Assembly (NCBI GenBank): GCA_016217725.1
Contig: JACRHB010000220.1
Span: forward strand, 11,970 to 75,969
DNA: 64,000 bases
Source of the DNA: Nitrospirota bacterium
GTDB taxonomy: Bacteria > Nitrospirota > Thermodesulfovibrionia > UBA6902
Reading direction: 5' to 3'
The notes beneath the pieces were generated by a model. The model searched no databases. It saw only the letters and a list, made by a program, of their open reading frames with translations, and had not been told where the DNA came from. How positions within the stretch are numbered: the stretch's first letter is position 1; each line of letters opens with the position of its first letter. Position numbers and translations under genes: made by a program. Positions 6,733 through 39,313 of the stretch are shown here, piece after piece.

Positions 6733-6984
6733 TTACGGCTTCTGGATAAAGATCTCCCAGTAGCCTTTGTCTTCGATTTTGATCAGCTCGAACGGAAAAC
6801 CCTGTTTCTCGCAGTATTTCGGTATGGTGTCTTCGGCGGACGCAGGCGCGTCGCAAAGCACTTTTAACAGGGTGCCGTTCGGCGCTTTCTCCATCGTCTT
6901 TTTTGTTATTACGAGCGGGTAAGGACAAACCCTTCCCAATACGTCCAGGGTCTGTGTCGGTGTTAGCGCTTTTAAGTCTGCCAT
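6733..6984 (-). CDS. tusA: TusA-family sulfurtransferase
   Basis: 83 aa; conserved CPxP active-site motif (LDVLGRVCPYPLV). Confidence 0.8.
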   Translation of the reverse strand: MADLKALTPTQTLDVLGRVCPYPLVITKKTMEKAPNGTLLKVLCDAPASAEDTIPKYCEKQGFPFELIKIEDKGYWEIFIQKP

Positions 6985-7020: not shown

Positions 7021-7434
7021 TTAAAAGAAAAGCAGATGGTTCACTTCTTCCATCATCTTTGTTATGTCTGTAAAGGGAACGACTTTTACCGTTACTTCCG
7101 CGCCGAATTCTTCTGCATCGATCACAATGTCGTTCTCTGTTAAACCGAACCTGTCGAGGTCTTCTTTGCATACAAGAACGTTCAGATCGAGAAGGAGCGA
7201 CATCTTGATATGTGTTTCGGTGCTTGTAAGTTTATACAGATCCATCGCCTTCTGATCTTTTTTGCAGTTTAGAACGCCGTCGCCAATAAACGCAATGTCC
7301 GCCGTGACGACGTCGCCTTCATTCAGATAAACCTCAACGCTCTGGGACGCTATGGCATGAGTAATGGCCAGTTTTGGATTTTCACTCTTGTACCCCGGTC
7401 TTTGAACGATAAATCCGAGTTTAGTCGTTGCCAT
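7021..7434 (-). CDS. DsrE/DsrF (TusC/TusD)-family sulfur relay protein
   Basis: 137 aa; N-terminal KLGFIVQRPGY and ...VLVCKEDLDRFGL resemble the TusC/DsrF pattern; lies between dsrE-like and tusA. Confidence 0.6.
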   Translation of the reverse strand: MATTKLGFIVQRPGYKSENPKLAITHAIASQSVEVYLNEGDVVTADIAFIGDGVLNCKKDQKAMDLYKLTSTETHIKMSLLLDLNVLVCKEDLDRFGLTENDIVIDAEEFGAEVTVKVVPFTDITKMMEEVNHLLFF

Positions 7435-7436
7435 TG

Positions 7437-7796
7437 TTATTCACCTCCTATATGCAAAACCCTGTCGGCATCAAATGTGCTTGCAAGGTACCAGTCCATG
7501 CTGTGTCTCTTAAAACCTTCCATTGTATTTTCCTTGTGATAACCCCTGGCTTCAGCGCAGGCCTCACAGGCTGTCACGTTAAGGCCTTTTGCCATTAACT
7601 CTTTCAAGGGACCTTCAAGAAAAGAATAGTCTTTAAAAGCCCTCTGTCCCTTTATTGAAAGCATCGTCCCATTGCCTGAGACCCATAGATCAACTTTATG
7701 GCCTTTTTCCATGGCCGTACCTGCAAGCTTTACTGCAAAATCAAGGCTCATCGAGCCGACTAGTGAAGCAAAACAACCGATAGTAAGCTTTCCCAT
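7437..7796 (-). CDS. DsrE/TusD-like sulfur relay protein (start at internal MGKLTIG; ORF-track start 7820)
   Basis: Conserved Cys in ...NVTACEACAEARGY, comparable to the TusD/DsrE active-site region ICVAAALRRG. Confidence 0.6.
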   Translation of the reverse strand: MGKLTIGCFASLVGSMSLDFAVKLAGTAMEKGHKVDLWVSGNGTMLSIKGQRAFKDYSFLEGPLKELMAKGLNVTACEACAEARGYHKENTMEGFKRHSMDWYLASTFDADRVLHIGGE

Positions 7797-7810
7797 TGGT
7801 TCAATTCCTC

Positions 7811-8107
7811 CTATAACCAAGCAGTTTTATCGTATTCGTTGAAGATCAAATCTACTATATCGCTGTAACTTATAACCTTAACGTTGTCGGCGACGTCTGC
7901 ATTGCCCAGGCCCCTTGTCTGCAGGTCGTCTATCAGGACATAAAAGTCGGCTGTTTTTTGCAGCAGGGATGAGGGACTTCCTTTCTCTTTGGTTGTGGCA
8001 TGGTAAACGCCGTTTTGAACAAGTATAATGCAGAGCTTTTCAGGATTTAACCGGTCAAGAGTGTCTACATTAAGCCTGTAATCACTTACAAAAGCAGCTA
8101 ATTTCAT
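7811..8107 (-). CDS. DsrH/TusB-like protein (start at MKLAAF with AGGAGG RBS; ORF-track start 8188)
   Basis: 99 aa; ...LCIILVQNGVYHA... matches the DsrH/TusB LLLQDGV motif; GGAGG 7 nt upstream of ATG 8107. Confidence 0.6.
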   Translation of the reverse strand: MKLAAFVSDYRLNVDTLDRLNPEKLCIILVQNGVYHATTKEKGSPSSLLQKTADFYVLIDDLQTRGLGNADVADNVKVISYSDIVDLIFNEYDKTAWL

Positions 8108-8299
8108 ATGTACCTCCTGAATGGAAAATATGTTGGAAGTTTCTAAAAAAAGATGAATAATTTTATCCGGTAACCAGTTTTTTGTCAAGAAAGAATGAGG
8201 GTATAAAAATTCTTTATAAAAAAGCTTTGACGTAAGCCGTATCCGGTTAACGTGACCGTAAGAAACCGGACACGGACAACGGTCACGATCAACGTTTTT

Positions 8300-9640
8300 T
8301 CATCCTTCCAGCTTTCTCATTATCTCCATAAATCCCGGGAAAGACGTATTAATGCAATCCGTGTCGGAGACCACCGTCTCTCCGTCAGCCAAAAGCCCGG
8401 CGACAGCCAGCGACATTGCGATCCTGTGGTCGCCATAGCTTTGGACCACGGCGGATCTTAACTTTTCCCTACCTTCAATGATAAGGCCGTCTTCAAGCTC
8501 CGCAACATTGACCCCCATCTTCCGCAGCTCCGAAGCAACGGTCGCTATTCTGTCCGATTCCTTCACCCTCAATTCCTTTGCCCCGGTTATCTTTGTTTTT
8601 CCCTGAGCCAATGCCGCAGCTACGCAAAGAATCGGGAATTCGTCTATGGTCTTTGGAACCATCTCGCCGCCGAGATCTATCCCCGAAAGAGTTGAGTGTT
8701 TAACATAAATATCCGCAACGGGCTCTCCGGAGACTTCTCTCTCATTTTCGAGTCTGATGTCGGCGCCCATTGTCTGAAGTATCTCAAGCAACCCCGTTCT
8801 TGTCGGATTGACCCCGGTGTTTTTTATCAATATCTCCGAGCCGGGGACCAATATGCCGGCAGCGATGAAAAAAGCAGCCGATGAGAAATCCGCCGGCACG
8901 GTTAAATCCTGAGGACTTAATACAGTCCTCCCTTTAACGCGTGCCGTTGAACCCTCGACTTTTATCTCTGCTCCTGCCGCTTTCAACATGCGTTCGGTAT
9001 GGTCACGAGACTTTTCAGGCTCAGTTACGGTTGTAACGCCGTCGCAGTAAAGACCGGCAAGCAGAATGGCTGATTTAACCTGTGCGCTTGCAACGGGAGA
9101 TTTATAAGTTATCGGCTTGAGCTCCCCGCCCGTTACACTTAAAGGGGGATAACCGTTTTCCGATTTAAACACCGCGCCCATCTGAGTCAGAGGCTCCATT
9201 ACCCTTCTCATAGGCCTGCGTGTTAATGAGGCGTCGCCTTTCAACATTGCAGAGAACGGCTGACCCGCAAGGACGCCGCAGAGAAGTCTCATCGTTGTTC
9301 CTGAATTCCCGCAGTCTATGTCGCCTTGCGGCTTTCGCAAGCCCGATAGCCCGTTACCGTTGATTATTACTACCCCCCCTTGTTCCCCCCTTAGCAAGGG
9401 GGGGATGGGGGGGTGACTTCTGACTTCTGACTTCTGACTTCTGACTTCTATCTCCACCCCCATCTGTCTGAACGCCCCGACGGTGCTGAGGGGGTCTTCC
9501 GCGTGCAGGAAATTCCTTATAACGCTTTTGCCTTCTGCAAGGGCTGAAAGTATAACGGCGCGATGGGAGATCGATTTGTCCGGCGGGGGGATGAGCTCAC
9601 CGCGCAGAGGGTTTGTGAATTTAATTCTAATCTGATCCAA
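8300..9640 (-). CDS. aroA: 3-phosphoshikimate 1-carboxyvinyltransferase (EPSP synthase), with an in-frame ~23-aa repeat-derived insertion
   Basis: 446 aa; class II EPSPS motifs (ISHRAVILSAL, DCGNSGTTMRLL, RVKESDR); the extra loop VRSQKSEVRSHPPIPPLLRGEQG is encoded by the palindromic/tandem repeat at 9373-9448. Confidence 0.95.
   Translation of the reverse strand: MDQIRIKFTNPLRGELIPPPDKSISHRAVILSALAEGKSVIRNFLHAEDPLSTVGAFRQMGVEIEVRSQKSEVRSHPPIPPLLRGEQGGVVIINGNGLSGLRKPQGDIDCGNSGTTMRLLCGVLAGQPFSAMLKGDASLTRRPMRRVMEPLTQMGAVFKSENGYPPLSVTGGELKPITYKSPVASAQVKSAILLAGLYCDGVTTVTEPEKSRDHTERMLKAAGAEIKVEGSTARVKGRTVLSPQDLTVPADFSSAAFFIAAGILVPGSEILIKNTGVNPTRTGLLEILQTMGADIRLENEREVSGEPVADIYVKHSTLSGIDLGGEMVPKTIDEFPILCVAAALAQGKTKITGAKELRVKESDRIATVASELRKMGVNVAELEDGLIIEGREKLRSAVVQSYGDHRIAMSLAVAGLLADGETVVSDTDCINTSFPGFMEIMRKLEG
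9373..9448. repeat. G-rich palindrome plus (TTCTGAC)n tandem repeat embedded in-frame in aroA
   Basis: cccccccttgttccccccttagcaagggggggatgggggggtgacttctgacttctgacttctgacttc; the same style as the intergenic hairpin repeats. Confidence 0.7.
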
Positions 9641-10487
9641 GGAGTTTTCTTGCCTCTTGGGCCCTTATAAATTCTTTTTCAAGGCCGTCCCAGTCCGATC
9701 TTTCAATAAGCCCTGTTACGTGAGAGATGGAAGAGGAGAATTTTTTTAGACTCTTTAATATATTCTTTTTGTTGCAGGCGCATATATCCCGCCAGAGGCC
9801 CGGGGGGCTTAATGCGATCCTCGTCATGTCCCTCAATCCTCTGCCGCCGTAAGGGAGAATCTTGCCGTCAGCCTTCATGATGCCGTTTACCAATGCATAG
9901 GCGGCCACGTGCGGCATGTGGCTTACCGAGGCATAGATCATGTCATGCGCTTCAGGTTTCATAAGCAATGTTTTTGAGCCGACTGCCTTCCAGAGGGCAA
10001 TAATCGTTTTGAGCGCGTTTTTGTTCGTATTCGGACCGGGGGTAATGATGCAGCGAGCATTCCGATAAAGATCGGCAGAGGCGCAGCTTATGCCGGAGCA
10101 TTCCTTCCCCGCAATTGGATGCGCTCCCACAAAGTGCACGCCTTCCGGCATCAGAGGCTCAATCTTTTTAACTATCAGGGCCTTTACGCTGCCCACGTCG
10201 GTGACTATTGCGCCTTTCTTTATGCCGCCTCTTATATTTCCGACAATCGCTTCAAACTGCCCGACGGGGACCGCAAGTAAAATCAGGTCGGCGTCCTTTA
10301 TACCTTCCGCGTGAGAAGTGGAATAATTGTCTATGATCCCAAGCCTTTTTGCCTTGATTAAATTTTTCTTATTCCTTCCGATGCCGGTTATCCGGCCCTT
10401 GAACCCTTTCTTTTTAAGGGCCAGGGCGAATGAGCTGCCCATAAGTCCGACGCCGATTATTGCAATGTGTTTAAAATGTATGGTCAT
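9627..10487 (-). CDS. tyrA: prephenate (arogenate) dehydrogenase
   Basis: 286 aa; N-terminal Rossmann fold GVGLMGSSFA; TyrA-family core; located within the aromatic amino-acid operon. Confidence 0.85.
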   Translation of the reverse strand: MTIHFKHIAIIGVGLMGSSFALALKKKGFKGRITGIGRNKKNLIKAKRLGIIDNYSTSHAEGIKDADLILLAVPVGQFEAIVGNIRGGIKKGAIVTDVGSVKALIVKKIEPLMPEGVHFVGAHPIAGKECSGISCASADLYRNARCIITPGPNTNKNALKTIIALWKAVGSKTLLMKPEAHDMIYASVSHMPHVAAYALVNGIMKADGKILPYGGRGLRDMTRIALSPPGLWRDICACNKKNILKSLKKFSSSISHVTGLIERSDWDGLEKEFIRAQEARKLLGSD

Positions 10488-10499
10488 AAGTTGTTTTTT

Positions 10500-10555
10500 G
10501 TAGCGTCGGGGTTAATCCCCGACGATGAACGCCCCCGATAAACGAGGGCGCTACG
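10500..10555. repeat. GTAGCG...CGCTAC twin-hairpin element between tyrA and hisC
   Basis: gtagcgtcggggttaatccccgacgatgaacgcccccgataaacgagggcgctac. Confidence 0.55.
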
Positions 10556-11648
10556 TACGGGCGGGTTTTAAACCCGCCCCTTCTTCCTTCAACGCTTCCA
10601 TAAATCTCTTATTCTCCTCAGGGAGTCCTATTGTAACACGGACTGCGCCGGCTCCCATCGGTCTTATGATGACCCCCTTTTGAAGAAGGTCGTTGTACAG
10701 TTTGAAAGCCGTATCTTTTTTCAAAGGGATATAAATGAAATTTGCCTCTGTCGGAACGTAATCCATACCCAAAGCTTCAAGCTCCTTGTAAAGATATTTT
10801 TTGCCTCTTTCGTTTATCCTTTTGGTCTTTGCAAGGTGCTTCTCGTCTTTCAATGCCGCAAGGGCGGCCTTCTGCGCCGGAGAGTTTATGTTGAACGGCT
10901 GCCGCACCTTGTTCATTTCTGTAATTATGGATGCCTTTGCAATTGCATACCCTATCCTGAGACCGGCAAGACCGTATATTTTAGAAAAGGTCCTAAGGAT
11001 AAGTATATCCCTGTCCTGCCTGAAATACTTCATGCCGTCCGCATAATCCGGCGCAGAGACATATTCATAGTATGCTTCATCAACGACCACGAGTACCCCT
11101 TCGGGAATCTTCTCCATAAAGGCGTCCATTTCATCCTTTGTATTTATCGTTCCCGTAGGGTTATTGGGATTTGCAATAAAAATTATCTTTGTCTTTTCCG
11201 TTATCCTTGAAGCCATCTCCTGAAGGTCATGCCGCTGCCCTTTAAGCGGCACAATTATATTGTTGCCGTGCGCCGCCTGAGCAATCGAGGAGTATACGAC
11301 AAAAGAGGGGTGCGCCATTAACGCCTCGTCTCCGGGAGCGAGGAACGTCCTCACCGCCAATTCTATAATCTCATTAGAGCCGTTGCCGAATATTATCTCA
11401 TCCGGGCTGACCCGCAATTTCTCCGACAAGGCCTGACGGAGATAATGGCAGCTTCCGTCAGGATATCTGTTCAGGTCTTTTAAACCCTTGCGAAGCGCCT
11501 GGATTGCGAGAGGCGACGGGCCGAGAGGGTTTTCATTCGATGCAAGCTTTATCGAGCCTTTAATCCCCAGCTCCCGCTCAAGCTCTTCCAACGGCTTGCC
11601 CGGGACGTAAGGCGTTAAGGTTTTTATGTGTTCGGGGGCGTATATCAT
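10551..11648 (-). CDS. hisC: histidinol-phosphate / aromatic aminotransferase (class II PLP aminotransferase); the C-terminal 9 aa are encoded by a palindromic repeat
   Basis: 365 aa; ...KLASNENPLGPSP..., ...TFSKIYGLAGLRIGY (PLP lysine region); the C-terminus ...EEGAGLKPART comes from the gggcgggttttaaacccgccc element. Confidence 0.9.
   Translation of the reverse strand: MIYAPEHIKTLTPYVPGKPLEELERELGIKGSIKLASNENPLGPSPLAIQALRKGLKDLNRYPDGSCHYLRQALSEKLRVSPDEIIFGNGSNEIIELAVRTFLAPGDEALMAHPSFVVYSSIAQAAHGNNIIVPLKGQRHDLQEMASRITEKTKIIFIANPNNPTGTINTKDEMDAFMEKIPEGVLVVVDEAYYEYVSAPDYADGMKYFRQDRDILILRTFSKIYGLAGLRIGYAIAKASIITEMNKVRQPFNINSPAQKAALAALKDEKHLAKTKRINERGKKYLYKELEALGMDYVPTEANFIYIPLKKDTAFKLYNDLLQKGVIIRPMGAGAVRVTIGLPEENKRFMEALKEEGAGLKPART
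10558..10595. repeat. palindrome GGGCGGGTTTTAAACCCGCCC(CTTCTTCCTTCA), copy 1 (the hisC 3' end is encoded inside it); copy 2 at 14257-14294 lies in-frame inside the Mo-enzyme gene
   Basis: A ~35-nt block shared with 14257-14294; both encode ..EGAGLKPA.. on the minus strand. Confidence 0.7.
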
Positions 11649-11651
11649 GAG

Positions 11652-11710
11652 GAAGTTGTTAGTTGTTAGTTGTTAGTCCAAAAACTAAAAACTAACAACT
11701 AACAACTTTT
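11652..11710. repeat. (GTTGTTAG)n/(CTAACAAC)n palindrome between pheA and hisC (same family as 3162-3213)
   Basis: gaagttgttagttgttagttgttagtccaaaaactaaaaactaacaactaacaactttt. Confidence 0.65.
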
Positions 11711-11713
11711 TGT

Positions 11714-12781
11714 TCATTCCGCCGACGGGTAGGAACCCAGAACCTTCAGATAAAGACATTCCTTTTTTACTTCATTAAGCGCCTTCTTGACCCCTTTGTC
11801 TTCCATATGGCCTTCCATGTCTATGAAGAAGATGTATTCCCATGCCTTTCTCCTCGAAGGCCTGGATTCGATCTTTGTGAGGCTGATTTTGTTTCTCGCA
11901 AACGGCCTCAATATTGAATAAAGGGCGCCGGCTCTGTCTTTTATGGACAGCATGACCGACGTCTTGTCCTTGCCCGTCACGAGCGGCGATTCTTTTGCAA
12001 TCACCAGGAAGCGGGTGAAATTGTTTTTGTAGTCCTCTATTCCCTTTTCAACGAATTTGAGATTATAAACCGAGGCGGCAAGCTCGCTTGCAACCGCAGC
12101 CGCAGAGGGGTCTTTTGAGACGCGCTTGGCAGCAGCGGCGGTGCTCAGCTCCTCAACGACCGGCGTGCCCGGGAAATTCTTTTCGAGCCAGCCCTTGCAC
12201 TGCGCCGTCGCCTGCGGATAGGAATAGATCTTGTTTATGTCCGACCTTACGCCTGTTTTTGACAGGAGGTTGTGCCTTATCTCAAGCATTATCTCAAAGG
12301 CGATCTTTAAATCCGAATCGATAAATACGTCGAGGGTTGAATTGACCACCCCTTCGGTTGAATTTTCGATCGGCACCACTCCGTACTGCGCCTTCCCCCT
12401 CGCCACCGCTTCAAAGACGCCCTTTATGGTGCTTTCGGGCAGGTATTCCGCAGAGGAGCCGAATTTCCTGATCGATGCAAGATGCGTGAAAGTTGCGGTC
12501 GGCCCGAGATAGGCGACCTTTAAAGGCTGCTGCAGGGAGAGCGACGCGGAGAGGATTTCTTCATAGATCAGCTTTAGGGCATTGTCGGGAAACGGCCCCG
12601 GGTTGTTTCCCGAAAGTCTTCTCAGTACCTCTCTCTCTCTTTCGGGTGAATGGATGTTTAAATTCTTATCCTGTTTTGCCTTGCCGATCTCTATCGCGAT
12701 CTCCGCCCTCCTGTTCAGTAATTCGAGGATGCGGAGGTCGAGCTCGTCGATCTTTTTCCGGAGCTTATCGAGTTCAGACAT
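11714..12781 (-). CDS. pheA: bifunctional chorismate mutase / prephenate dehydratase (P-protein); start at MSELDKLRK (ORF-track start 12934)
   Basis: CM domain (LDKLRKKIDELDLRILELLNRRAEIAIEIG), PDT domain (VAYLGPTATFTHLA...) and C-terminal ACT domain. Confidence 0.9.
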   Translation of the reverse strand: MSELDKLRKKIDELDLRILELLNRRAEIAIEIGKAKQDKNLNIHSPEREREVLRRLSGNNPGPFPDNALKLIYEEILSASLSLQQPLKVAYLGPTATFTHLASIRKFGSSAEYLPESTIKGVFEAVARGKAQYGVVPIENSTEGVVNSTLDVFIDSDLKIAFEIMLEIRHNLLSKTGVRSDINKIYSYPQATAQCKGWLEKNFPGTPVVEELSTAAAAKRVSKDPSAAAVASELAASVYNLKFVEKGIEDYKNNFTRFLVIAKESPLVTGKDKTSVMLSIKDRAGALYSILRPFARNKISLTKIESRPSRRKAWEYIFFIDMEGHMEDKGVKKALNEVKKECLYLKVLGSYPSAE

Positions 12782-13047
12782 GATGAAGGTTAATTTAGCA
12801 ATTACCCCCGGATTTTTCAAGGGATGGGCTTTTAACTTAAGAACGGCAGTTATATCCACAGATTTCACAGATAAAGACAATGACATAAATGAGATAGTCA
12901 CATATTGTATATTCACCCAAAAGGTGAAAGGCAAAAGTCAGTTAAGCTTTTAATAACTCTGTGATAATCTGCGTTAATCTGTGGATAAATGCTTTTTTTA
13001 GGTTTAAGGATTTGTAGAAGCAAAAAACCGGCCTTGGCAGGAGTCAG

Positions 13048-13126
13048 GAGTTAAGAGTTAAGAGTTAAGAGTTAAGAGTTGAGAGTTAACGGGCTCTAAA
13101 ACTTTTAACTTTTAACTTTCAACTTC
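13048..13126. repeat. (GAGTTA)n ... (AACTTTTA)n imperfect palindromic word-repeat; overlaps the stop of the Mo-oxidoreductase gene
   Basis: gagttaagagttaagagttaagagttaagagttgagagttaacgggctctaaaacttttaacttttaactttcaacttc. Confidence 0.6.
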
Positions 13127-16100
13127 TTTAATCATCCTCACCATCACGTCCCCGAACCCGGGCATGCCGGTGAAAGGGGAAAGGTTATCCGGATCGAGGC
13201 ATTCATTGATATTCGGAATGTATTCGGAGACATTATTTATAAAACCCGGGCCGGAAGCCTTTTGTCCGCCGGGACCGAATGCGGTCTTGATGACGCCCGG
13301 CATTACTTCTTCCGTCAGAAAAACTTTCCCGCTCACCCGCTTTTTGAAGGGCGTTTCGAGCGCTATGACGTCTCCGTTTTTAACACCCAGCCGCTCGCCG
13401 TCGGAATTATTCACGGCTAAGACGGGAATGGAGCCCCCTTCATCCAGCCGCTTCATGCACTCCGTCTCCGTTTCCGCAAGATACGGGCAGACCGCCGTCA
13501 TCGTCATTGAATGATGGACCCTGCCTGTAATCAACTGGAACGGATACTCCCTGCTTATCTGTTTGTATTGTGAATTCTTCGGATTCCATTTGCAGTCTCT
13601 CCAGTAAAAGGTCGTCGGGAAACCGGTCCCGAGCCTTCTGTTGCTGTTTTCGAGGTAACCGAACTTGAATTCAAATTTCCCTGAGCCGGTCTTCGGATAT
13701 ACGCCGGATGAGGCGCCGGTTGACTTTCTGTGCCTGTAATAGCTTGCAGGCCATACCGCTGCGCCGTTATGTTTTCTGAGCCAGTCCACTGTGAGCGGTT
13801 CGCCCTGTTTGAGGAGCTTCTTTCCCCAGACGGCGGTCGGATTATCCGGTGCGCCGGTTATCAAACAGCCTTCCGGCAGATCCGGGTAAGGGAGCGGTTC
13901 TCCGACATTGTAATACCCCGGCGTTTCGGCAAGGAGCTCATTTATAAAATCCTCTTCTTCGTTATATCTCCGCCCGAAATCTTCCGCCCTGACGTCGGGA
14001 TCGCCGTTTCTTACTAATGCTTCGGAAAGGGTAAGCATAATTTCAAAGGGAGTCCTTGCTTCATAAAGAGGCTTGATTACCTGATCCCTGATCGCTATTT
14101 CCGGGCTCATTGTGTAAACGTCGCTGACTCCCATCCTTTCGAGATAACCGGCTTCGGGCAGAATTATGTCCGCATATTTCCCGGTTTCAGAAATGTGCGT
14201 GTCGATAAAGACTATAAGCTCAAGCTGGTATCTGCTTAAGGATTCCCCTTCATCCGTAGGGGCGGGTTTTAAACCCGCCCCTTCTCCTTCATCAAAAGGA
14301 AGGGGCAGGAGATCGTTTTTCAAGGTCAAGGCGTCAATCCAGTCCGGGGTGCTGCCTGCCGTCATGACGGGATTGCCCGCCCTTGTTATAAAGGCCTTTA
14401 CCGGGTAGGAATAGTCTTTAAAGACCCCGTGCTTTAGCTTTATCCCGTCCCTTATTTTTTGCGGCAGATCGGCCAACACGCCTTTCCATGCAGCCGGGAA
14501 ATCGCCGAAAAGATCTTTATGAAGCCCGGAAAGCTTGTCCGAAACCTCGCTCCCGTCAATATTTCTGCCGACGACCTTTTCCAGAAAATCTTTTCCTGCG
14601 GCTTTATCCCCCCTCCGGGGCTTTTGTGAATCGATGAATACAAGCCCTCCCGGCGTATCGATATTGCCCGTTATCAAGCAGAGCGCCGTCATGAGTATCG
14701 ATGAAACGTCGCCGTTTGCATGGTGTGAAACGCCGTGCATCCCCAGCTCGATCGAGGCGGGCTTTGTGCTGCCGAAAAGGTGCGATATCCTGATGATGTT
14801 TTCCGCGGATATCCCCGTCTTCTCCGCCGCCCATTCAAGGGTGAAAAATTTCATATCGTTTGAAGGGTCTCTCTTTTCCGAGTATGAAAGGAGCGCGTCT
14901 TTGAATTCCTCCCAGCCGTTTGTGTAATTTTTTATGAAATCGTGATCTATATATTTCTGCTCCGGATCATTCTGGATGATGTAATGGAGCATTGCCGCAA
15001 GCAGCGCCGCATCCGTCCCCGGTGTTATGGGAAGCCATATGTCCGCATGAGCGGCGGAATTGGTATATGCGGGGTCAATCACAATATACATGCATCCGTT
15101 TTCTTTTGCCGCAGGTATCCCCCGGGACATGTAATTGAATCTCGTCGCCACAAACGGGTTGGCCCCGAGATTCAGGATGAGCTTTGCGTCATGCTCCCTT
15201 TTGAGATGCAGCCCGCCGTCGTCATCTCTGATCAATAAAGGCCGTTGAACGTCGGGCAGCGGTCTTTCATCGCCTAACATAAGGCCCTGTCCCCATCTGC
15301 GGTTGGGATCGCAAATGCTGCCGTGGTTGTATGTGTTCGGAGTGCCGAAGGCATGAAACAGCCTGTAATACGCCTCTCTGTCGGTCACGTCGCCGCAGTC
15401 TAAAAAAACGGATTCCGCCCCGTATCTGTTTTTTATCTCGAGCAGCTTCTTTGCAATATAATCGGAAGCCTCCTCCCACGTGATTTCCTTCCATTTATCC
15501 TCGCCCCTTTCCCCGGTCCTTATCAGAGGGGTTTTTATCCTGTGAGGAGAGTATGTAAGCTGCAGCCCGGAAGCGCCCTTTGCGCAGAAGGCCCCGTTGT
15601 TTACAAGTGTATGCGGACTGCCGTATATTTTTTTGGCAATGCCGTTGTCAACAAGCACGGATATCCCGCATTCGGAAGGGCACATGGCGCATGATGAATA
15701 TCTTGATTTTAATGTGCCTTCTGTCTGTTCAGGAGATTTCTTTACCTTAATGCGTCGGGTAGATTTTGTGTCTGAGGGGATCGTATAATCCTTCAGCGGA
15801 GCATTGCAGACGTCACCTTTAAAGATGTAAAAGACCGAGGGGTTGGTCCCGAGCTCGGGATTGAGGACTTTTAACTGATGCTTGGAAAGCTCAGCCGATA
15901 TTTCACTTTTGGGGTCGTTTATGTCGCCGAAAAGCATCGCCCTCCCCATGCAGCTCTGCGCACAGACTGGCTGAAGACCCCTTGTAATTCTTTCATAGCA
16001 GAAATCGCATTTCTCGGCCTGTCCCGTGCTCGGGCTTATCTCGATCGCGTTATAAGGGCATTTATCCTCGCACATCTTGCAGCCGATACAGCCGCTCCCA

Positions 16101-16369
16101 TTCAAGATGACGACGCCGTCCTGATTTTTATAAAGGGCTTTCTCCTTGCATTCTTCAATGCACGGTGCAGTATCGCAGTGATTGCAGAGACGGGGAAGGA
16201 AAACTTTTTTGATTTGCGGATAACCGCCGGACCGATAAGTCTCAACCCTGCAGCGGAAAGCTCCAAACGGGATATTATATTCAGCCTTGCACGTTACCTG
16301 ACAGGCGTGGCATCCGATGCACCTGTCGAGGTCGATCAACATTCCGTATCTCTTTTGATGTTTCGCCAT
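13112..16369 (-). CDS. molybdopterin (MopB-family) oxidoreductase fused to an N-terminal 4x[4Fe-4S] ferredoxin module (PsrB/PsrA-like fusion); no Tat signal
   Basis: 1085 aa; the N-terminal ~190 aa carry four CxxCxxCxxxCP ferredoxin motifs (CIGCHACQVTC...CNHCDTAPCIEEC...CIGCKMCEDKCP...); then the MopB CxxCxxxC (CAMCPSECG) and Molybdop_Fe4S4, Molybdopterin and Molydop_binding regions. Confidence 0.85.
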   Translation of the reverse strand: MAKHQKRYGMLIDLDRCIGCHACQVTCKAEYNIPFGAFRCRVETYRSGGYPQIKKVFLPRLCNHCDTAPCIEECKEKALYKNQDGVVILNGSGCIGCKMCEDKCPYNAIEISPSTGQAEKCDFCYERITRGLQPVCAQSCMGRAMLFGDINDPKSEISAELSKHQLKVLNPELGTNPSVFYIFKGDVCNAPLKDYTIPSDTKSTRRIKVKKSPEQTEGTLKSRYSSCAMCPSECGISVLVDNGIAKKIYGSPHTLVNNGAFCAKGASGLQLTYSPHRIKTPLIRTGERGEDKWKEITWEEASDYIAKKLLEIKNRYGAESVFLDCGDVTDREAYYRLFHAFGTPNTYNHGSICDPNRRWGQGLMLGDERPLPDVQRPLLIRDDDGGLHLKREHDAKLILNLGANPFVATRFNYMSRGIPAAKENGCMYIVIDPAYTNSAAHADIWLPITPGTDAALLAAMLHYIIQNDPEQKYIDHDFIKNYTNGWEEFKDALLSYSEKRDPSNDMKFFTLEWAAEKTGISAENIIRISHLFGSTKPASIELGMHGVSHHANGDVSSILMTALCLITGNIDTPGGLVFIDSQKPRRGDKAAGKDFLEKVVGRNIDGSEVSDKLSGLHKDLFGDFPAAWKGVLADLPQKIRDGIKLKHGVFKDYSYPVKAFITRAGNPVMTAGSTPDWIDALTLKNDLLPLPFDEGEGAGLKPAPTDEGESLSRYQLELIVFIDTHISETGKYADIILPEAGYLERMGVSDVYTMSPEIAIRDQVIKPLYEARTPFEIMLTLSEALVRNGDPDVRAEDFGRRYNEEEDFINELLAETPGYYNVGEPLPYPDLPEGCLITGAPDNPTAVWGKKLLKQGEPLTVDWLRKHNGAAVWPASYYRHRKSTGASSGVYPKTGSGKFEFKFGYLENSNRRLGTGFPTTFYWRDCKWNPKNSQYKQISREYPFQLITGRVHHSMTMTAVCPYLAETETECMKRLDEGGSIPVLAVNNSDGERLGVKNGDVIALETPFKKRVSGKVFLTEEVMPGVIKTAFGPGGQKASGPGFINNVSEYIPNINECLDPDNLSPFTGMPGFGDVMVRMIKEVES

Positions 16370-16572: not shown

Positions 16573-16947
16573 TCATTCAACAATCAACTTCCCTACCATT
16601 CCTCCCCAAAAGTAATGAAAACCTTTTTCGATATAACAGCCGTACTCAAATTCGCCTGTCTGAGAGGCGTAAAATTCGCCGGTTACTTTTTGACCTTTCG
16701 GAATCTTAAAGCGCAGATCATAGCCAACGAGTCTGAAATTGTAATCCCAGTCAACGCTTTCAACTTCAAGTATCACGTGGGAGCCTTTTTTAACCCTCAC
16801 AAGGTCGGGAATCCATTTGCAGTTATCACCTTTTATCTTGACTGTTTCAGTTGGAACTCCCGAGGGCATACCCTCCAGGGACATTAGTCTCTGCCCGGCA
16901 CATCCTATTAATAATATCAAAAGAATTGCCGTAAATATTTTTTTCAT
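16573..16947 (-). CDS. lipoprotein, possible cupredoxin-like fold (start at MKKIF; ORF-track start 16989)
   Basis: Signal peptide with lipobox LLIGC; C-terminal C-x6-H-x5-M spacing resembles type-1 copper ligand geometry, but weakly. Confidence 0.4.
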   Translation of the reverse strand: MKKIFTAILLILLIGCAGQRLMSLEGMPSGVPTETVKIKGDNCKWIPDLVRVKKGSHVILEVESVDWDYNFRLVGYDLRFKIPKGQKVTGEFYASQTGEFEYGCYIEKGFHYFWGGMVGKLIVE

Positions 16948-17229
16948 CACTGCCTCCTTTCCGCCTGTTTGTCTCCGTTTCTCACTCAATGCGAGGGGAG
17001 AAATCTCAAATATCTTTAGCTTTTATATATCATGTCAAACCTATATTGTCAACTCACCCCAATCAATCAAATGATTAAAAACTTTAATCTGACGCTTTTC
17101 GCGGAATGAATGTAATTGAATTATAAAAATTTCTAATTGTTCCTAAAATAAAATAGTATGTTATAATTTTTCGACGAAATTTCTTTTTCTAAAGGTTAAT
17201 CTGAATTACATCAGAGGATTTATTCTAAT

Positions 17230-35388: not shown

Positions 35389-36873
35389 TCAGCCTATTCC
35401 TTCGTACTTCTTCATCCTCCAGTATTCCGCATTGAGGGTCTCCACGATATAGTCAACCCTGCGCGTTCTTATCAGCTTTCCGAGCGCGTCAAGAAAGACC
35501 TTCGGGTGTCTGAAGAGTATGGTGAACAGTATGGAGTAGAAGCTTATGTTGGTCTTCTGTGTGAAATAATTCTTCACAAAGAAGGCGTTCTGCAATTTTC
35601 TTCGGATGTCCCTGAGCTCCTCTTTCTTGAACGTTATCGCCATGAGGGGAAGCTCGGGCTGTCTGTGCGCCCATATTTCGGAGAACGGCAGATTGGGATC
35701 CAGCCAGCCGTTTTTAATAGCCATGTCATAAATGTCGGTTCCGGGATAGGGCGTCAGGAAATAAAAGGCGGTATAGTCCGCCTGGATATCTTTTGCCACC
35801 TGGAAGCTCTGCTCTATATCGTCTCTGGTTTCTTCAGGGTTTCCGATAATAAAGGTTGCCAGGGTCCTGATGTCGAGGTCCTTGCAGAGTTTGAAGGAAT
35901 GTCTTATCTGCGCGGTCCTGTCTCCGGCGCCTCCTTTACCGAGCACCCTGAGGATCTTTTCGGAGCCGCTTTCAACGCCGAAATCAAGCTGCACGAGACC
36001 GCTGTCTTTCATCATTTTCATCAAACCCATGTCCGTCTGGTCCACCCTGGACTGGCAGCCCCACTTGATGTTCAGGTTTCTACGCTTTAATTCCTCGCAA
36101 TATTCTTTCACCCATTTGGGACTCAGCGTAAAGGTGTCGTCGCAGTAATATATTCCCTTTATGTCGTAATTTTTATAGAGATATTCTATTTCATCAACTA
36201 CGTTCTTCACCGAGCGTCTTCTTGTTTTTCTGCCGAAGATGTTATGGCTGCCGCAATAGATGCATTTGAAAGGGCAGCCCCTGCTTGTAACAATGGTGGT
36301 CTGGTTCTTGGTTGCGTAGCCTCTTATTATTCCGGGCGGCTTGAGGTACGGCTTCATGTCGATAAGGTGCCGCGCAGGGAAAGGGATGGTATCCAGGTCT
36401 TGTATCATTTCGCGCCTGCCGTTATCTACGATGCCGACGTTGTCGCGGTACATGACGCCTTTGACGCCTGCAAGGCTTTGGTTGTTTCCCAGCTTCTCGC
36501 ATACCTCGACAATTGTGTCTTCGCCTTCGCCGACCACTATAAAATCAACGCCGAACTCTTCCATGGTCTCTTTCGGCTTTACGGTCGTATGAACTCCGCC
36601 GGAGCAGAATATTTTGCCGGGCAATTCCTTTTTCAGGTTTTGCATCAGATGCAGCGCCCTCTGGTATCCTACCGTCAGGAAGCTGAGGCCTATCAAGTCA
36701 GGGTTGAAATCCTTTATCTCATTCAGCATGCTTGCCTGATATTCGGGGTCTGAATCATAAATCTGAACGGCGTGTCCCGCCTTTTCAAGGACTGCGGCGA
36801 TATACATCAGTCCCAACGGCGGCACAACGTTGTTGCCGTCTAACACTTGAGCATTAACCAATGTTACTCTCAT
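35389..36873 (-). CDS. B12-binding domain radical SAM protein (class B)
   Basis: N-terminal B12-binding Rossmann fold (VTLVNAQ...VVPPLGLMYIAAVLEKAGHAVQIYD) and CxxxCxxC (SRGCPFKCIYCGS). Confidence 0.85.
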   Translation of the reverse strand: MRVTLVNAQVLDGNNVVPPLGLMYIAAVLEKAGHAVQIYDSDPEYQASMLNEIKDFNPDLIGLSFLTVGYQRALHLMQNLKKELPGKIFCSGGVHTTVKPKETMEEFGVDFIVVGEGEDTIVEVCEKLGNNQSLAGVKGVMYRDNVGIVDNGRREMIQDLDTIPFPARHLIDMKPYLKPPGIIRGYATKNQTTIVTSRGCPFKCIYCGSHNIFGRKTRRRSVKNVVDEIEYLYKNYDIKGIYYCDDTFTLSPKWVKEYCEELKRRNLNIKWGCQSRVDQTDMGLMKMMKDSGLVQLDFGVESGSEKILRVLGKGGAGDRTAQIRHSFKLCKDLDIRTLATFIIGNPEETRDDIEQSFQVAKDIQADYTAFYFLTPYPGTDIYDMAIKNGWLDPNLPFSEIWAHRQPELPLMAITFKKEELRDIRRKLQNAFFVKNYFTQKTNISFYSILFTILFRHPKVFLDALGKLIRTRRVDYIVETLNAEYWRMKKYEGIG

Positions 36874-36904: not shown

Positions 36905-39313
36905 TTAACCGCAGGCGCAGCACCCGCATTCCACCTTAGGTTTTGAGCCTTTCATGGTTACTGAATAAAACTGTATAAACTGAACTTTCTTATAGAGATA
37001 ATTCTTCGTCAATTGGACGTCGGGGAAGCCTGCGTTTTCAGCGGCGTCTTTGAACCTCTTATCCGTGAGGGCTCCCGACAGGCAGGCGTTCCACAGCTCT
37101 TTGTCCCTTTTCAGATATCCGGGGACGGGCTTGTCCGAGACAATATCCGAGATGATAAATCTGCCGCCGGGCTTTAAAATCCTGTAGATCTCATCAAGAA
37201 CCTTTGTCTTGTCTTCCGTAAGGTTGATGACGCAATTGGAGATGACGAGGTCGACCGTATTGCTCTCAACCGGCAGCTCCATTATGTTCCCGCTTTTGAA
37301 TTCGACGACGTTGTAACCCAGAACCTTTGCGACTTTCTCAGCGCTTACCGTCGCCTTTCCCACCATTTCATCGGTCATGTCTATCCCGATTACTTTACCT
37401 TTAGGCCCCAGCTTTTTTGCGGCTATGAAGCAGTCTATGCCTCCGCCCGCGCCCAAATCCACGATAGTCTCTCCTTCTTTTATATCCGCAAGGGCGGCGG
37501 GATTTCCGCAGCCGTAAGACACGTCAAGGACTTCGTTCGGAATATGCTCCAGGTCTTTCGGGCTGTACCCGGTAGGGCAGTAATAATCGGCAACCGGCAT
37601 ATTGGCGGCCTTTGAAAATTTTTTCTTCACGGTCTTTGTAACGTGGCCTTTTATCTCGGGCTTGCATACTTCCTCGTCGTCTTCAACGTCTACAGACAGG
37701 ACGCAGGAGCAGTGGTAGCATCCGACCTCGAATTTCTTATCGAGCGGCTTGATCCCCGCGCCGAGATGCGACGGCAGCTTTGAGTCCATTGCGTTATAGA
37801 CAAGCGGCGCAGAGTATCCTTTACCGTCTTGTGCCGGAACCCCTTCTGAGGCCAGCTCCCAGATTATATCTTCAAACAGCGCCTTGTATGTCAAACAATA
37901 AGGGTCCCGCGCGGTTACGGAGCCTTTGCCGGTGTCAACCTCGCTTGCGTAATAACTGTGCGAGGTGCAGCCTCCCCCGCAAAAGAACTCAAGATAGCAA
38001 TCCCTGCATGCCGGTTTGTTGTGCACGCTGTTGGCCCTGCCCCTTGCCATGACCTTTGAATTCAGCCAGATGTCCTTCAGGGATTTCTTTCTTACCGAAC
38101 CGGCGTCAAAATAAGGGTCGCCGTTCAAGGATGCGCACGGATAAACATGGCCATCCGAGTTTACGCAGACTTTTTCAAAGCAGTTATTGCAAAGGTCGTT
38201 CTTCCGGCCTCTTTTTGTGCGCACGCGCACTTTCAGGGATTCTATATTATCGAGGATGAGATCCTGCTCCTTGTATGACTTTTTAAGGTTTTTCATGGCA
38301 AGGGCGATGCGCTCCGAAGGCACGAATAATTCATTAACGTTATTTGCGCCCCGGCCCTTTGCGTGCATCCAGAGGATGTTATGCTCTTTAATTCCCAGCT
38401 TTGATAAAAACCGGGAAGTCTTTAATATCTCTTTCTCGTTATATTTATTGATCGCCGTTGAGATGATAGGGGTTATTCCGATGCCGACAAGTTTTTTAAT
38501 ACCGTTCACGGCGGCGTCAAAGCTGCCTTTGCCGCGCAGCTTGTCATGGATCCCGGCATTCGGGCCTTCCAGGCTTACCTGGAGGAGGAGTTTCGGACCC
38601 ATCACCTTTTTCAACTCGGCAATCCTCCTGTCGTCAAAGAGGGTGGCGTTTGTGAGGACGATGAGCTCGCGCTTCTTTATTTTTGTAATATATTTTATGA
38701 GCTCAAATATCCCTTCTTTAATAAACGGCTCCCCCCCCGTAATATAAAACCGTTTAACGCCGAGCTTTATCGCTTCATCTACGACGCCTTTGATCTCTTC
38801 CGTAGTTAATTCCTTTTTCAGGCTGCTCCCTGCGCTGACAAGACAGTGCTTGCACCTGAGATTGCAGGCGAGGGTGTAGTATATCCACAACTCGTCCAAT
38901 TTATAAGGCGCGATCGCATTGCTTCTGCCGGGATATTCAGGTCGTTCGAGCTTTTTATTGGATACGAACTCAAGCAGTCCGGCGGCGCTGAGAAAATCGG
39001 CGACCTCTTTTCCGGCCTGTGCGGTGTCCGGGACGTTATATTTTTTACGGACGGCTTCCTGTATCTCTGAAACCGTGTGTCTGCCGTCACACAGCTTGAT
39101 GATCTCCGCCCCCGTATTATTCACGCTGATCCAGTTGGGCGCCTTGGGATCAATGAAAAGGGCTATCCCGTCTCTTTGTTTTTTAACGTATTCAGGAGCG
39201 TACAGGACGTCGTCGGGACGGAATTCCTTGAGCTCGGGATTTGTGACCCTCCAGTAATCCAGACTGTATTTTTTTATCCGATCTTCTCTTGTATCGCAGC
39301 AGCCTTGCGCCAT
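36905..39313 (-). CDS. fusion protein: PqqD-like RRE domain, radical SAM/SPASM domain and a C-terminal class I SAM-dependent (ArsM-like) methyltransferase
   Basis: 802 aa; N-terminus matches the PqqD pattern (RPDDVLYAPEYV...DGIALFIDPKAPNWISVNNTGAEIIKLCDGRHTVSEIQEAV); radical SAM CNLRCKHC; SPASM CRDCYLEFFCGGGC; MT motif I VLDVSYGCGNP...IVDLGAGGGIDCF; Cys-rich C-terminus CGCCACG. Confidence 0.8.
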   Translation of the reverse strand: MAQGCCDTREDRIKKYSLDYWRVTNPELKEFRPDDVLYAPEYVKKQRDGIALFIDPKAPNWISVNNTGAEIIKLCDGRHTVSEIQEAVRKKYNVPDTAQAGKEVADFLSAAGLLEFVSNKKLERPEYPGRSNAIAPYKLDELWIYYTLACNLRCKHCLVSAGSSLKKELTTEEIKGVVDEAIKLGVKRFYITGGEPFIKEGIFELIKYITKIKKRELIVLTNATLFDDRRIAELKKVMGPKLLLQVSLEGPNAGIHDKLRGKGSFDAAVNGIKKLVGIGITPIISTAINKYNEKEILKTSRFLSKLGIKEHNILWMHAKGRGANNVNELFVPSERIALAMKNLKKSYKEQDLILDNIESLKVRVRTKRGRKNDLCNNCFEKVCVNSDGHVYPCASLNGDPYFDAGSVRKKSLKDIWLNSKVMARGRANSVHNKPACRDCYLEFFCGGGCTSHSYYASEVDTGKGSVTARDPYCLTYKALFEDIIWELASEGVPAQDGKGYSAPLVYNAMDSKLPSHLGAGIKPLDKKFEVGCYHCSCVLSVDVEDDEEVCKPEIKGHVTKTVKKKFSKAANMPVADYYCPTGYSPKDLEHIPNEVLDVSYGCGNPAALADIKEGETIVDLGAGGGIDCFIAAKKLGPKGKVIGIDMTDEMVGKATVSAEKVAKVLGYNVVEFKSGNIMELPVESNTVDLVISNCVINLTEDKTKVLDEIYRILKPGGRFIISDIVSDKPVPGYLKRDKELWNACLSGALTDKRFKDAAENAGFPDVQLTKNYLYKKVQFIQFYSVTMKGSKPKVECGCCACG

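Follow-up and report, generated by a model that had tools for sequence, protein, structure and literature searches.

A Ferredoxin-First Molybdopterin Oxidoreductase without an Export Signal in Uncultured Nitrospirota

A 64,000-nucleotide stretch of DNA (the window) from a Nitrospirota bacterium (GTDB lineage Nitrospirota; Thermodesulfovibrionia; UBA6902; GenBank assembly GCA_016217725.1, contig JACRHB010000220.1, forward-strand positions 11,970 to 75,969) encodes a molybdopterin oxidoreductase in which two subunits have become one. A four-cluster ferredoxin, the "B subunit," is joined to the front of a catalytic "A subunit" of the MopB superfamily in a single polypeptide that appears to stay in the cytoplasm. 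The reading favored here, with moderate confidence, is that of a self-wired molybdenum or tungsten (Mo/W) reductase acting in the cytoplasm on a small solute supplied by an importer, with no tie to the tusA and DsrEFH-like genes in the same window. The architecture can be read directly from the gene, while the substrate has to be approached through its relatives.

Two Subunits in One Chain

The open reading frame (ORF) encodes 1085 amino acids from an ATG start and lies on the minus strand exactly where the original prediction had placed it (Table 1). It had been described as an iron-sulfur (FeS) B subunit fused N-terminally to the A subunit, and three sets of comparisons draw that same boundary. 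In Pfam, Fer4_11 and other 4Fe-4S models cover residues 9-149, Molybdop_Fe4S4 covers 221-274, Molybdopterin begins at 277, and Molydop_binding covers 966-1074. Among the NCBIfam models, those for TtrB, ArrB, DsrO, and NrfC cover residues 2-193, and those for PhsA, Fdh-alpha, and DmsA match from about 213. The solved structures split alike, with ArrB and PsrB on 6-184 and PsrA and ArrA from about 210. The MopB domains score above their gathering cut-offs (PF00384 131 bits, PF01568 32 bits, PF04879 44 bits), as does Fer4_11 (91 bits, cut-off 26), which together with 16 cysteines marks a four-cluster ferredoxin of the PsrB/DmsB/NrfC/TtrB type.

The protein opens directly with the B-subunit motif RYGMLIDLDRCIGC. 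Its 16 ferredoxin cysteines, all invariant in 76 relatives, fall into four groups, as predicted, but not into four CxxCxxCxxxCP motifs: the strict CxxCxxCxxxC spacing is seen only in the groups that start at C17 and C94, and a proline follows in only one of these two. Further along the chain, the FS0 motif of the catalytic module reads C227-x2-C230-x3-C234-x27-C262. The Mo/W ligand Cys353 aligns with Cys173 of PsrA and with the Mo-ligand cysteine of ArrA and is likewise invariant in the 76 sequences. The ORF is real, and the MopB catalytic module is complete, with its own five-cluster wire.

An AlphaFold2 model built on the 76-sequence alignment reached a predicted local distance difference test (pLDDT) score of 80.6 and a predicted template modeling (pTM) score of 0.86. 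For a chain of two modules, such a pTM implies a defined packing of B on A. Confidence was low in the linker and FS0 region and in an insert specific to the window protein. This insert (residues 688-711, nucleotides 14237-14308) is an acidic, Gly/Pro-rich stretch, PLPFDEGEGAGLKPAPTDEGESLSRY, with a pLDDT below 50, and it is absent or different in the relatives P0089 and P0110. When the model was searched with Foldseek, ArrA ranked first (6cz7_A, E 1.6e-38), with acetylene hydratase, PsrA, and FdhF next in order, a result that confirms the predicted fold and leaves the substrate undecided.

A Conserved Family and Its Place in the Tree

The fusion is not the one-off oddity that it might have seemed. 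An identical protein (P0001) is present in a Nitrospirae metagenome-assembled genome (MAG), and the architecture recurs at 59-75% identity in over 100 protein clusters that come from independent assemblies, which rules out an assembly or frameshift artifact. The check for fused homologs that had been proposed thus revealed one conserved Nitrospirota family, all of which fell into a single 50%-identity cluster in an exhaustive profile search. Among 185,579 species-representative genomes, about 55 carry the fused gene (58-75% identity). All of these are uncultured Nitrospirota/Thermodesulfovibrionia MAGs, a few of them mis-binned, and many are labeled as groundwater or deep-subsurface; no cultured isolate among the genomes scanned has the gene. 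In the accessible literature, nothing was found that describes this family or any cytoplasmic Psr-like fusion enzyme from Nitrospirota.

Neighbor-joining trees with 100 bootstraps were built from 320 alignment columns (partial PsrA and ArrA sequences included) and from 694 columns (the full MopB module). The fused family is monophyletic with a bootstrap of 100, and its sister (bootstrap 99-100) is an unfused family of about 948 amino acids whose members are exported by the twin-arginine translocation (Tat) pathway. Together, the two families join, with a support of 90-100, a clade of proteins of about 740-810 amino acids that have no leader and are not fused. The resulting super-clade lies inside the Psr/Phs/Ttr/Arr radiation, apart from the E. 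coli-plasmid PhsA and TtrA, Thermus PsrA, and Shewanella ArrA; E. coli PhsA and T. thermophilus PsrA stand outside the grouping of the fused family with its sister and outgroup clades. FdhF and a DmsA-family protein fall outside the super-clade as well. Scores and tree together rule out a formate dehydrogenase or an assimilatory nitrate reductase, and the Foldseek ranking agrees with a place in the broad radiation. Five other fused FeS-MopB proteins are spread over the tree at 31-38% identity, so the fusion of B to A has happened several times. These uncharacterized, independent fusions (P0127/P0129 of Dehalococcoidia type, P0131 of Myxococcales, P0138, P0150, and P0503 of Burkholderiales, about 990 amino acids) have the same ferredoxin-MopB order and no obvious leader.

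Membership in any one of the named groups could not be upheld. No curated NCBIfam cut-off is reached by the window protein or its relatives; PhsA is always the best model and always far below its threshold (NF012032, 264 bits for the window protein, cut-off 694). Like PsrABC and PhsABC, the fused enzyme has a cysteine-ligated Mo, an FS0 cluster, and a four-cluster B partner, and PsrA is a near-best structural match. Unlike them, it has no Tat leader, carries B within its own chain, has no NrfD-type anchor gene in the window, and lies outside their clade. The lack of an NrfD-type gene in the window also argues against a Soe-type (SoeABC) complex. ArrAB provides the top structural match, the best structural match for the B domain (ArrB), and again a cysteine-ligated Mo. 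However, Arr is a periplasmic enzyme of two subunits with an (R/K)GRY motif, whereas the fused protein has CGDVTD where ArrA has RGRYS, and it scores 145 against 1600 with the ArrA model and 157 against 450 with that of ArrB. The scores for TtrA (100.8 against 1750) and TtrB (196 against 416) are also short of the mark, and in the tree TtrA has a long branch of its own. Judged from its sequence, the enzyme would be a PsrAB- or ArrAB-type module in its working, yet by these tests it is outside Psr/Phs, Ttr, and Arr.

Cellular Location

The fused protein lacks an export signal, and its place is almost certainly the cytoplasm. The absence of a signal peptide had been predicted, and a Tat leader hidden by a mis-called start can be ruled out: the upstream frame meets a stop after 39 codons and contains no ATG, GTG, or TTG and no RR motif. 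The original prediction had named two ways in which it could fail, a hidden Tat motif of this kind and a placement with formate dehydrogenases or assimilatory enzymes, and neither came to light. The missing chaperone points to the same location. A TorD-like chaperone gene is found in 27 of 28 loci of the Tat-exported sister family and in none of 51 fused loci (the window locus is included in all counts of 51).

A third argument comes from relatives of about 1360 amino acids in which a permease is fused to the front of the enzyme. Their hydrophobic or transmembrane segments are confined to the first 215 or so residues, and 6-10 Lys or Arg residues lie within the 40 residues past the last transmembrane segment. 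Under the positive-inside rule, such a Lys/Arg-rich junction means that the enzyme part faces the cytoplasm.

The linker between the two modules is variable and is 37-71 amino acids long across the family, but an S-T-R-R-(I/V)-K-V-K motif recurs in it. An RR pair is present in 29 of 76 linkers, compared to 11.4±2.9 in shuffles, in a count made on sequences that are related to each other. Alignment did not place the linker RR on the Tat motif of the sister family. The S-T-R-R may be a remnant of the twin-arginine signal of an ancestral A subunit, although it offers only a weak hint of this.

The Sister Family and a Proposed Origin of the Fusion

The Tat-exported family, itself uncharacterized and represented by WP_173201954.1 of Geobacter sp. 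SVR and P0405 of Desulfitobacterium hafniense DCB-2, is 47% identical to the window protein over the whole MopB module. The two families share the motifs GDVTDR and HGSICD(P/T)xRR and an FS0 motif of the form D/C-x2-C-x3-C. The Geobacter protein is a sister and not an ortholog of the window protein, and it is possibly the antimonate reductase AnrA, an enzyme described from Geobacter sp. SVR or Desulfuribacillus stibiiarsenatis for which no accession was found. Its Tat leader is a textbook one (MQISRRLFLQ), and it works with a separate B subunit; the fused family has neither.

In the sister operon, seen in 28 loci, the order is a phosphonate-binding-type sensor, a kinase, a σ54 regulator, B, in some loci NrfD, A, and the TorD-like chaperone. 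B thus stands immediately upstream of A, with a gap of 11 nucleotides in one locus (L004), and the fusion has its domains in this very order. Sister B subunits make up the six best matches of the B domain of the window protein (47-54%), ahead of TtrB (44%) and PhsB/DmsB (35-36%). The sensor gene is present in 18 of the 28 sister loci and 0 of the 51 fused ones, and NrfD in 8 and 2, respectively. From these comparisons, the ancestor would have been a Tat-exported two-gene system with B directly upstream of A. The B stop codon, the hydrophobic core of the A leader, and the TorD-like chaperone would then have been lost, turning a periplasmic two-subunit respiratory enzyme into a cytoplasmic single chain. 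Two MAGs, SURF_11 (L057 and L083) and SRP302447_co3_820 (L065 and L059), hold both the fused enzyme and a periplasmic split form, so the two are paralogs and not replacements of each other.

The sister operon itself is highly conserved and horizontally spread (L004, L005, L006, L058-L086), with hosts that include Geobacter, Thermodesulfovibrionales, Desulfitobacterium, Neomoorella, and Deferribacterales. The first FS0 ligand differs between the window protein and most of its kin. Residue 227 (codon 15689-15691), a cysteine in the window protein, corresponds to Asp in at least 90% of the fused family and in most of the sister proteins (D-x2-C-x3-C). In most members, the FS0 cluster may accordingly have an Asp ligand or be unusual in some other way.

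Importers and Regulators beside the Relatives

A polar-amino-acid-type ATP-binding cassette (ABC) importer is found directly upstream and co-directional with the enzyme gene, or fused to it, in 15 of the 51 fused loci. Its parts are a GlnQ-like ATPase, two HisQ/M-type permeases, or an SBP_bac_3-type binding protein, and in five loci the fusion is translational. In the protein database, 13 protein clusters have a fused PF00528 permease domain. The proteins of about 1360 amino acids are triple fusions of a HisQ/M-type permease, FeS, and MopB (L002/L046, CP070788.1, 10001-14092; L033, L043, L047, L050; P0082-P0114), each preceded immediately by the gene for a second permease. The best scores of the importer components are with models of cystine, glutamine, and lysine/arginine/ornithine transporters, and none reaches a curated cut-off. 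In the leaderless unfused outgroup clade, four of five sampled loci show the same linkage, including that of the cultured Photobacterium gaetbulicola, so the association of enzyme and importer predates the fusion and spans phyla.

In 29 fused loci, the gene directly upstream, in the same direction, encodes a regulator of the ArsR/SmtB type. It fits the metalloregulator model for ArsR/SmtB and contains two vicinal cysteines; LGCCKF stands in the C-terminal part of 28 of the 29 copies, and the longer C-terminal motif VLDLGCCKF is nearly invariant (L008, 9647-9982, and 28 other loci). The ELCVCD site with which a classical ArsR binds arsenite is presumably missing from this regulator. A gene for a 116-amino-acid rhodanese is present in 13 fused loci and a TauE-like gene in one.

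The outgroup has partners of its own. ArsM/UbiE-like methyltransferases flank some of its enzymes, and in L091 (P. gaetbulicola) and L093 the leaderless relatives keep company with NifH/D/K-like, NifB-like, dihydrodipicolinate synthase (DHDPS), and aminotransferase genes and two ABC permeases. By their gene content, these two clusters appear to be an uncharacterized nitrogenase-like system partnered with a molybdoenzyme. A link of such clusters to the Mar type was not confirmed in the review searched.

What the Enzyme May Reduce

In the favored reading, the enzyme is catalytically competent, and a soluble donor of low potential, probably a ferredoxin, would feed electrons to the distal [4Fe-4S] cluster. 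These electrons would pass through the four [4Fe-4S] clusters of the B domain to FS0 and on to the Cys353-ligated Mo/W center, as homology to PsrAB and ArrAB would have it. No membrane anchor is encoded nearby. The substrate would be a small, probably anionic or amino-acid-like solute taken up by the polar-amino-acid-type ABC importer, to judge from the linkage in relatives and not from the window. In most relatives, expression would be under the ArsR/SmtB-type repressor with its vicinal-cysteine sensor motif.

Several points weigh against this account. The importer, the ArsR-like regulator, and the rhodanese have no homolog in the window, where only generic ABC ATPase matches were seen, and the importer coupling is extrapolated from about 30% of the fused loci. 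Much of the conserved synteny, that of the GT2 glycosyltransferase gene and the pheA operon across the fused loci, reflects vertical inheritance and is silent on function. The trees are neighbor-joining and not maximum likelihood, with no SoeA, SrrA, AioA, ArxA, or SreA references, and the model is of low confidence in the FS0 and linker region.

A bolder form of the proposal would have the importer hand a novel substrate straight to the Mo/W reductase in the cytoplasm, making the fused enzymes and their unfused leaderless relatives a group of "importer-docked" molybdoenzymes. This is a tentative idea, more doubtful than the account on which it builds. The substrate could then be an amino-acid analog that bears an oxyanion or contains a chalcogen or pnictogen. 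To our knowledge, such transport-coupled reduction has no characterized precedent among MopB enzymes.

As to the kind of compound, sulfur-type and metalloid-type substrates are both possible, on evidence that is about equally strong. Of the cytoplasmic sulfur-compound enzyme with an unusual domain order that had been predicted, the location and the order stand, and a sulfur substrate has no stronger support than a metalloid.

The enzyme could be a cytoplasmic reductase that acts on a group-15 oxyanion, either antimonate or arsenate, or on an amino-acid analog with pentavalent organic arsenic, and it would then be a paralog of a periplasmic metalloid reductase; this is rather unlikely, though by no means far-fetched. 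The sister family includes the protein of the antimonate-respiring Geobacter sp. SVR, but that this protein is the published AnrA could not be confirmed. AioX-like sensor systems adjoin the sister family in 18 of 28 loci, but sensors of the phosphonate-binding type serve other oxyanions as well. In several loci, the sister family sits in arsenic/antimony islands with genes for ArsR, Acr3, ArsM-like proteins, and ArsC at its flanks, although loci with ars genes are a minority and ars genes flank none of the fused loci. The metalloregulator beside the fused family, with its vicinal cysteines, and the ArsM/UbiE-like methyltransferases of the outgroup point the same way. So does the top structural rank of ArrA, to be set against the replacement of (R/K)GRY by CGDVTD and the low score with the ArrA model.

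About as probable is that the cell imports an organosulfur or organoselenium derivative of an amino acid (S-sulfocysteine, a cystine polysulfide, or a sulfoxide, for example), which the enzyme reduces in the cytoplasm for salvage or as an electron sink. Psr, Phs, and Ttr enzymes cleave S-S bonds, rhodanese and TauE-like genes are among the neighbors, and the best models for the importer components are those for cystine and other amino acids, even if no component reaches a curated cut-off. The DHDPS, aminotransferase, and nitrogenase-like genes near the outgroup enzymes suggest the catabolism of amino-acid-like compounds; a likeness of the nitrogenase-like clusters to those of Mar sulfur salvage was not confirmed in the literature searched. 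We know of no MopB activity on such derivatives in this clade.

Less likely again is the function first proposed, that of a cytoplasmic reductase or oxidase of polysulfide, thiosulfate, tetrathionate, or a persulfide carrier that exchanges sulfur with a TusA/DsrEFH relay. PhsA is the best curated model and few solved structures match better than PsrA, but the PhsA score is far under its cut-off, the family lies outside the PhsA/PsrA clade, and an NrfD/PsrC anchor was not found in the window. The rhodanese in 13 related loci and the TauE-like gene in one would suit sulfur chemistry. The tusA and DsrE-, DsrF-, and DsrH-like genes do exist, on the strand of the enzyme gene and about 5 kb downstream, but to call the enzyme "next to" them was too strong, as a four-gene aromatic amino-acid operon, pheA-hisC-tyrA-aroA (8300-12934), intervenes. 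In none of the 50 other fused loci, scanned for 7.5 kb downstream and 4.5 kb upstream, do such genes accompany the fusion. Synteny thus rejects a functional tie, and the inference of a sulfur relay is left unsupported.

That the protein is a non-catalytic electron-transfer module without a Mo cofactor, like QrcB or the ActB of alternative complex III (ACIII), is very improbable. QrcB is among the weak NCBIfam matches, and ActB is a natural fusion of MopB-like and four-cluster-type ferredoxin modules whose FeS part matches the N-terminus of the query. However, in ActB the MopB part comes first, the Mo cofactor and most clusters are lost, and the protein belongs to a membrane complex (PMC10100899). 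The fused enzyme has the reverse order, no membrane partner in the window, and a Cys353, FS0 ligands, and two PGD-binding (pyranopterin guanine dinucleotide) domains conserved across the 76 sequences.

Surroundings of the Gene in the Window

The features of the enzyme and its neighbors are collected in Table 1. Neither an NrfD/PsrC membrane anchor nor a TorD-like chaperone was found in the window, and scans for promoters and terminators gave results no better than those from shuffles. The small lipoprotein ORF upstream stands where 29 relatives carry the ArsR-like regulator. It has no homolog in the other loci and only a weak match to the C-terminal region of NosZ, and it is possibly cupredoxin-like.

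The tusA block has an unusual order, H-E-F-tusA, with no YeeE/YedE gene nearby. It follows aroA only in this genome; in relatives such as L001 and L002, the genes after aroA are cmk, an acyltransferase gene, and rpsA, and other loci repeatedly have clusters of matching size downstream. Farther away, an 802-amino-acid fusion of PqqD, radical S-adenosylmethionine (SAM), SPASM, and SAM-methyltransferase domains (36905-39313, minus strand) adjoins a B12-binding radical SAM protein (35389-36873, minus strand). The two may form a maturation cluster of the type that acts on ribosomally synthesized and post-translationally modified peptides (RiPPs).

Table 1. Positions of the fused oxidoreductase, its parts, and its neighbors in the window
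Feature	Position	Strand	Basis or remark
Fused FeS(B)-MopB(A) oxidoreductase, complete gene, 1085 aa	13112..16369	-	ORF, domains, family conservation, AlphaFold2 model
Four-cluster ferredoxin domain, residues 1-193	15791..16369	-	Fer4_11; TtrB/ArrB/DsrO/NrfC models; ArrB/PsrB structures
Ferredoxin Cys groups C17/20/23/27, C62/65/70/74, C94/97/100/104, C121/124/136/140	within 15791..16369	-	
Inter-domain linker, variable, residues 194-220, with S-T-R-R motif	15710..15790	-	Low pLDDT
FS0 [4Fe-4S] domain of catalytic module, residues 221-274	15548..15709	-	Molybdop_Fe4S4; motif read directly
Molybdopterin (bis-PGD) binding core, residues 277-965, including Cys353 (codon 15311-15313)	13475..15541	-	PF00384
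C-terminal molybdopterin dinucleotide-binding domain, residues 966-1074	13148..13474	-	PF01568
pheA	11714-12934	as fusion	Downstream of fusion
hisC	10551-11648	as fusion	Downstream of fusion
tyrA	9627-10487	as fusion	Downstream of fusion
aroA	8300-9640	as fusion	Downstream of fusion
DsrH-like gene	7811-8188	-	
DsrE-like gene	7437-7820	-	
DsrF/TusC-like gene	7021-7434	-	
tusA	6733-6984	-	
138-aa lipoprotein ORF, lipobox LIGC, without family assignment	16573-16989	-	Upstream of fusion
GT2 glycosyltransferase gene		divergent	Upstream, beyond lipoprotein ORF

Meaning for the Family

MopB enzymes drive much of the anaerobic cycling of sulfur, nitrogen, arsenic, and selenium, and many of their clades have no known substrate. 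Members of the present family are now labeled "polysulfide/thiosulfate reductase" or "tetrathionate reductase subunit B" in the databases, and such names are unwarranted for this gene. The most striking feature, seen in the relatives and not in the window, is the repeated coupling of a molybdoenzyme to an ABC importer, at times by translational fusion. The identity of the substrate would add a reaction to the cycling of elements in the subsurface and would explain why an apparently respiratory enzyme has moved inward.

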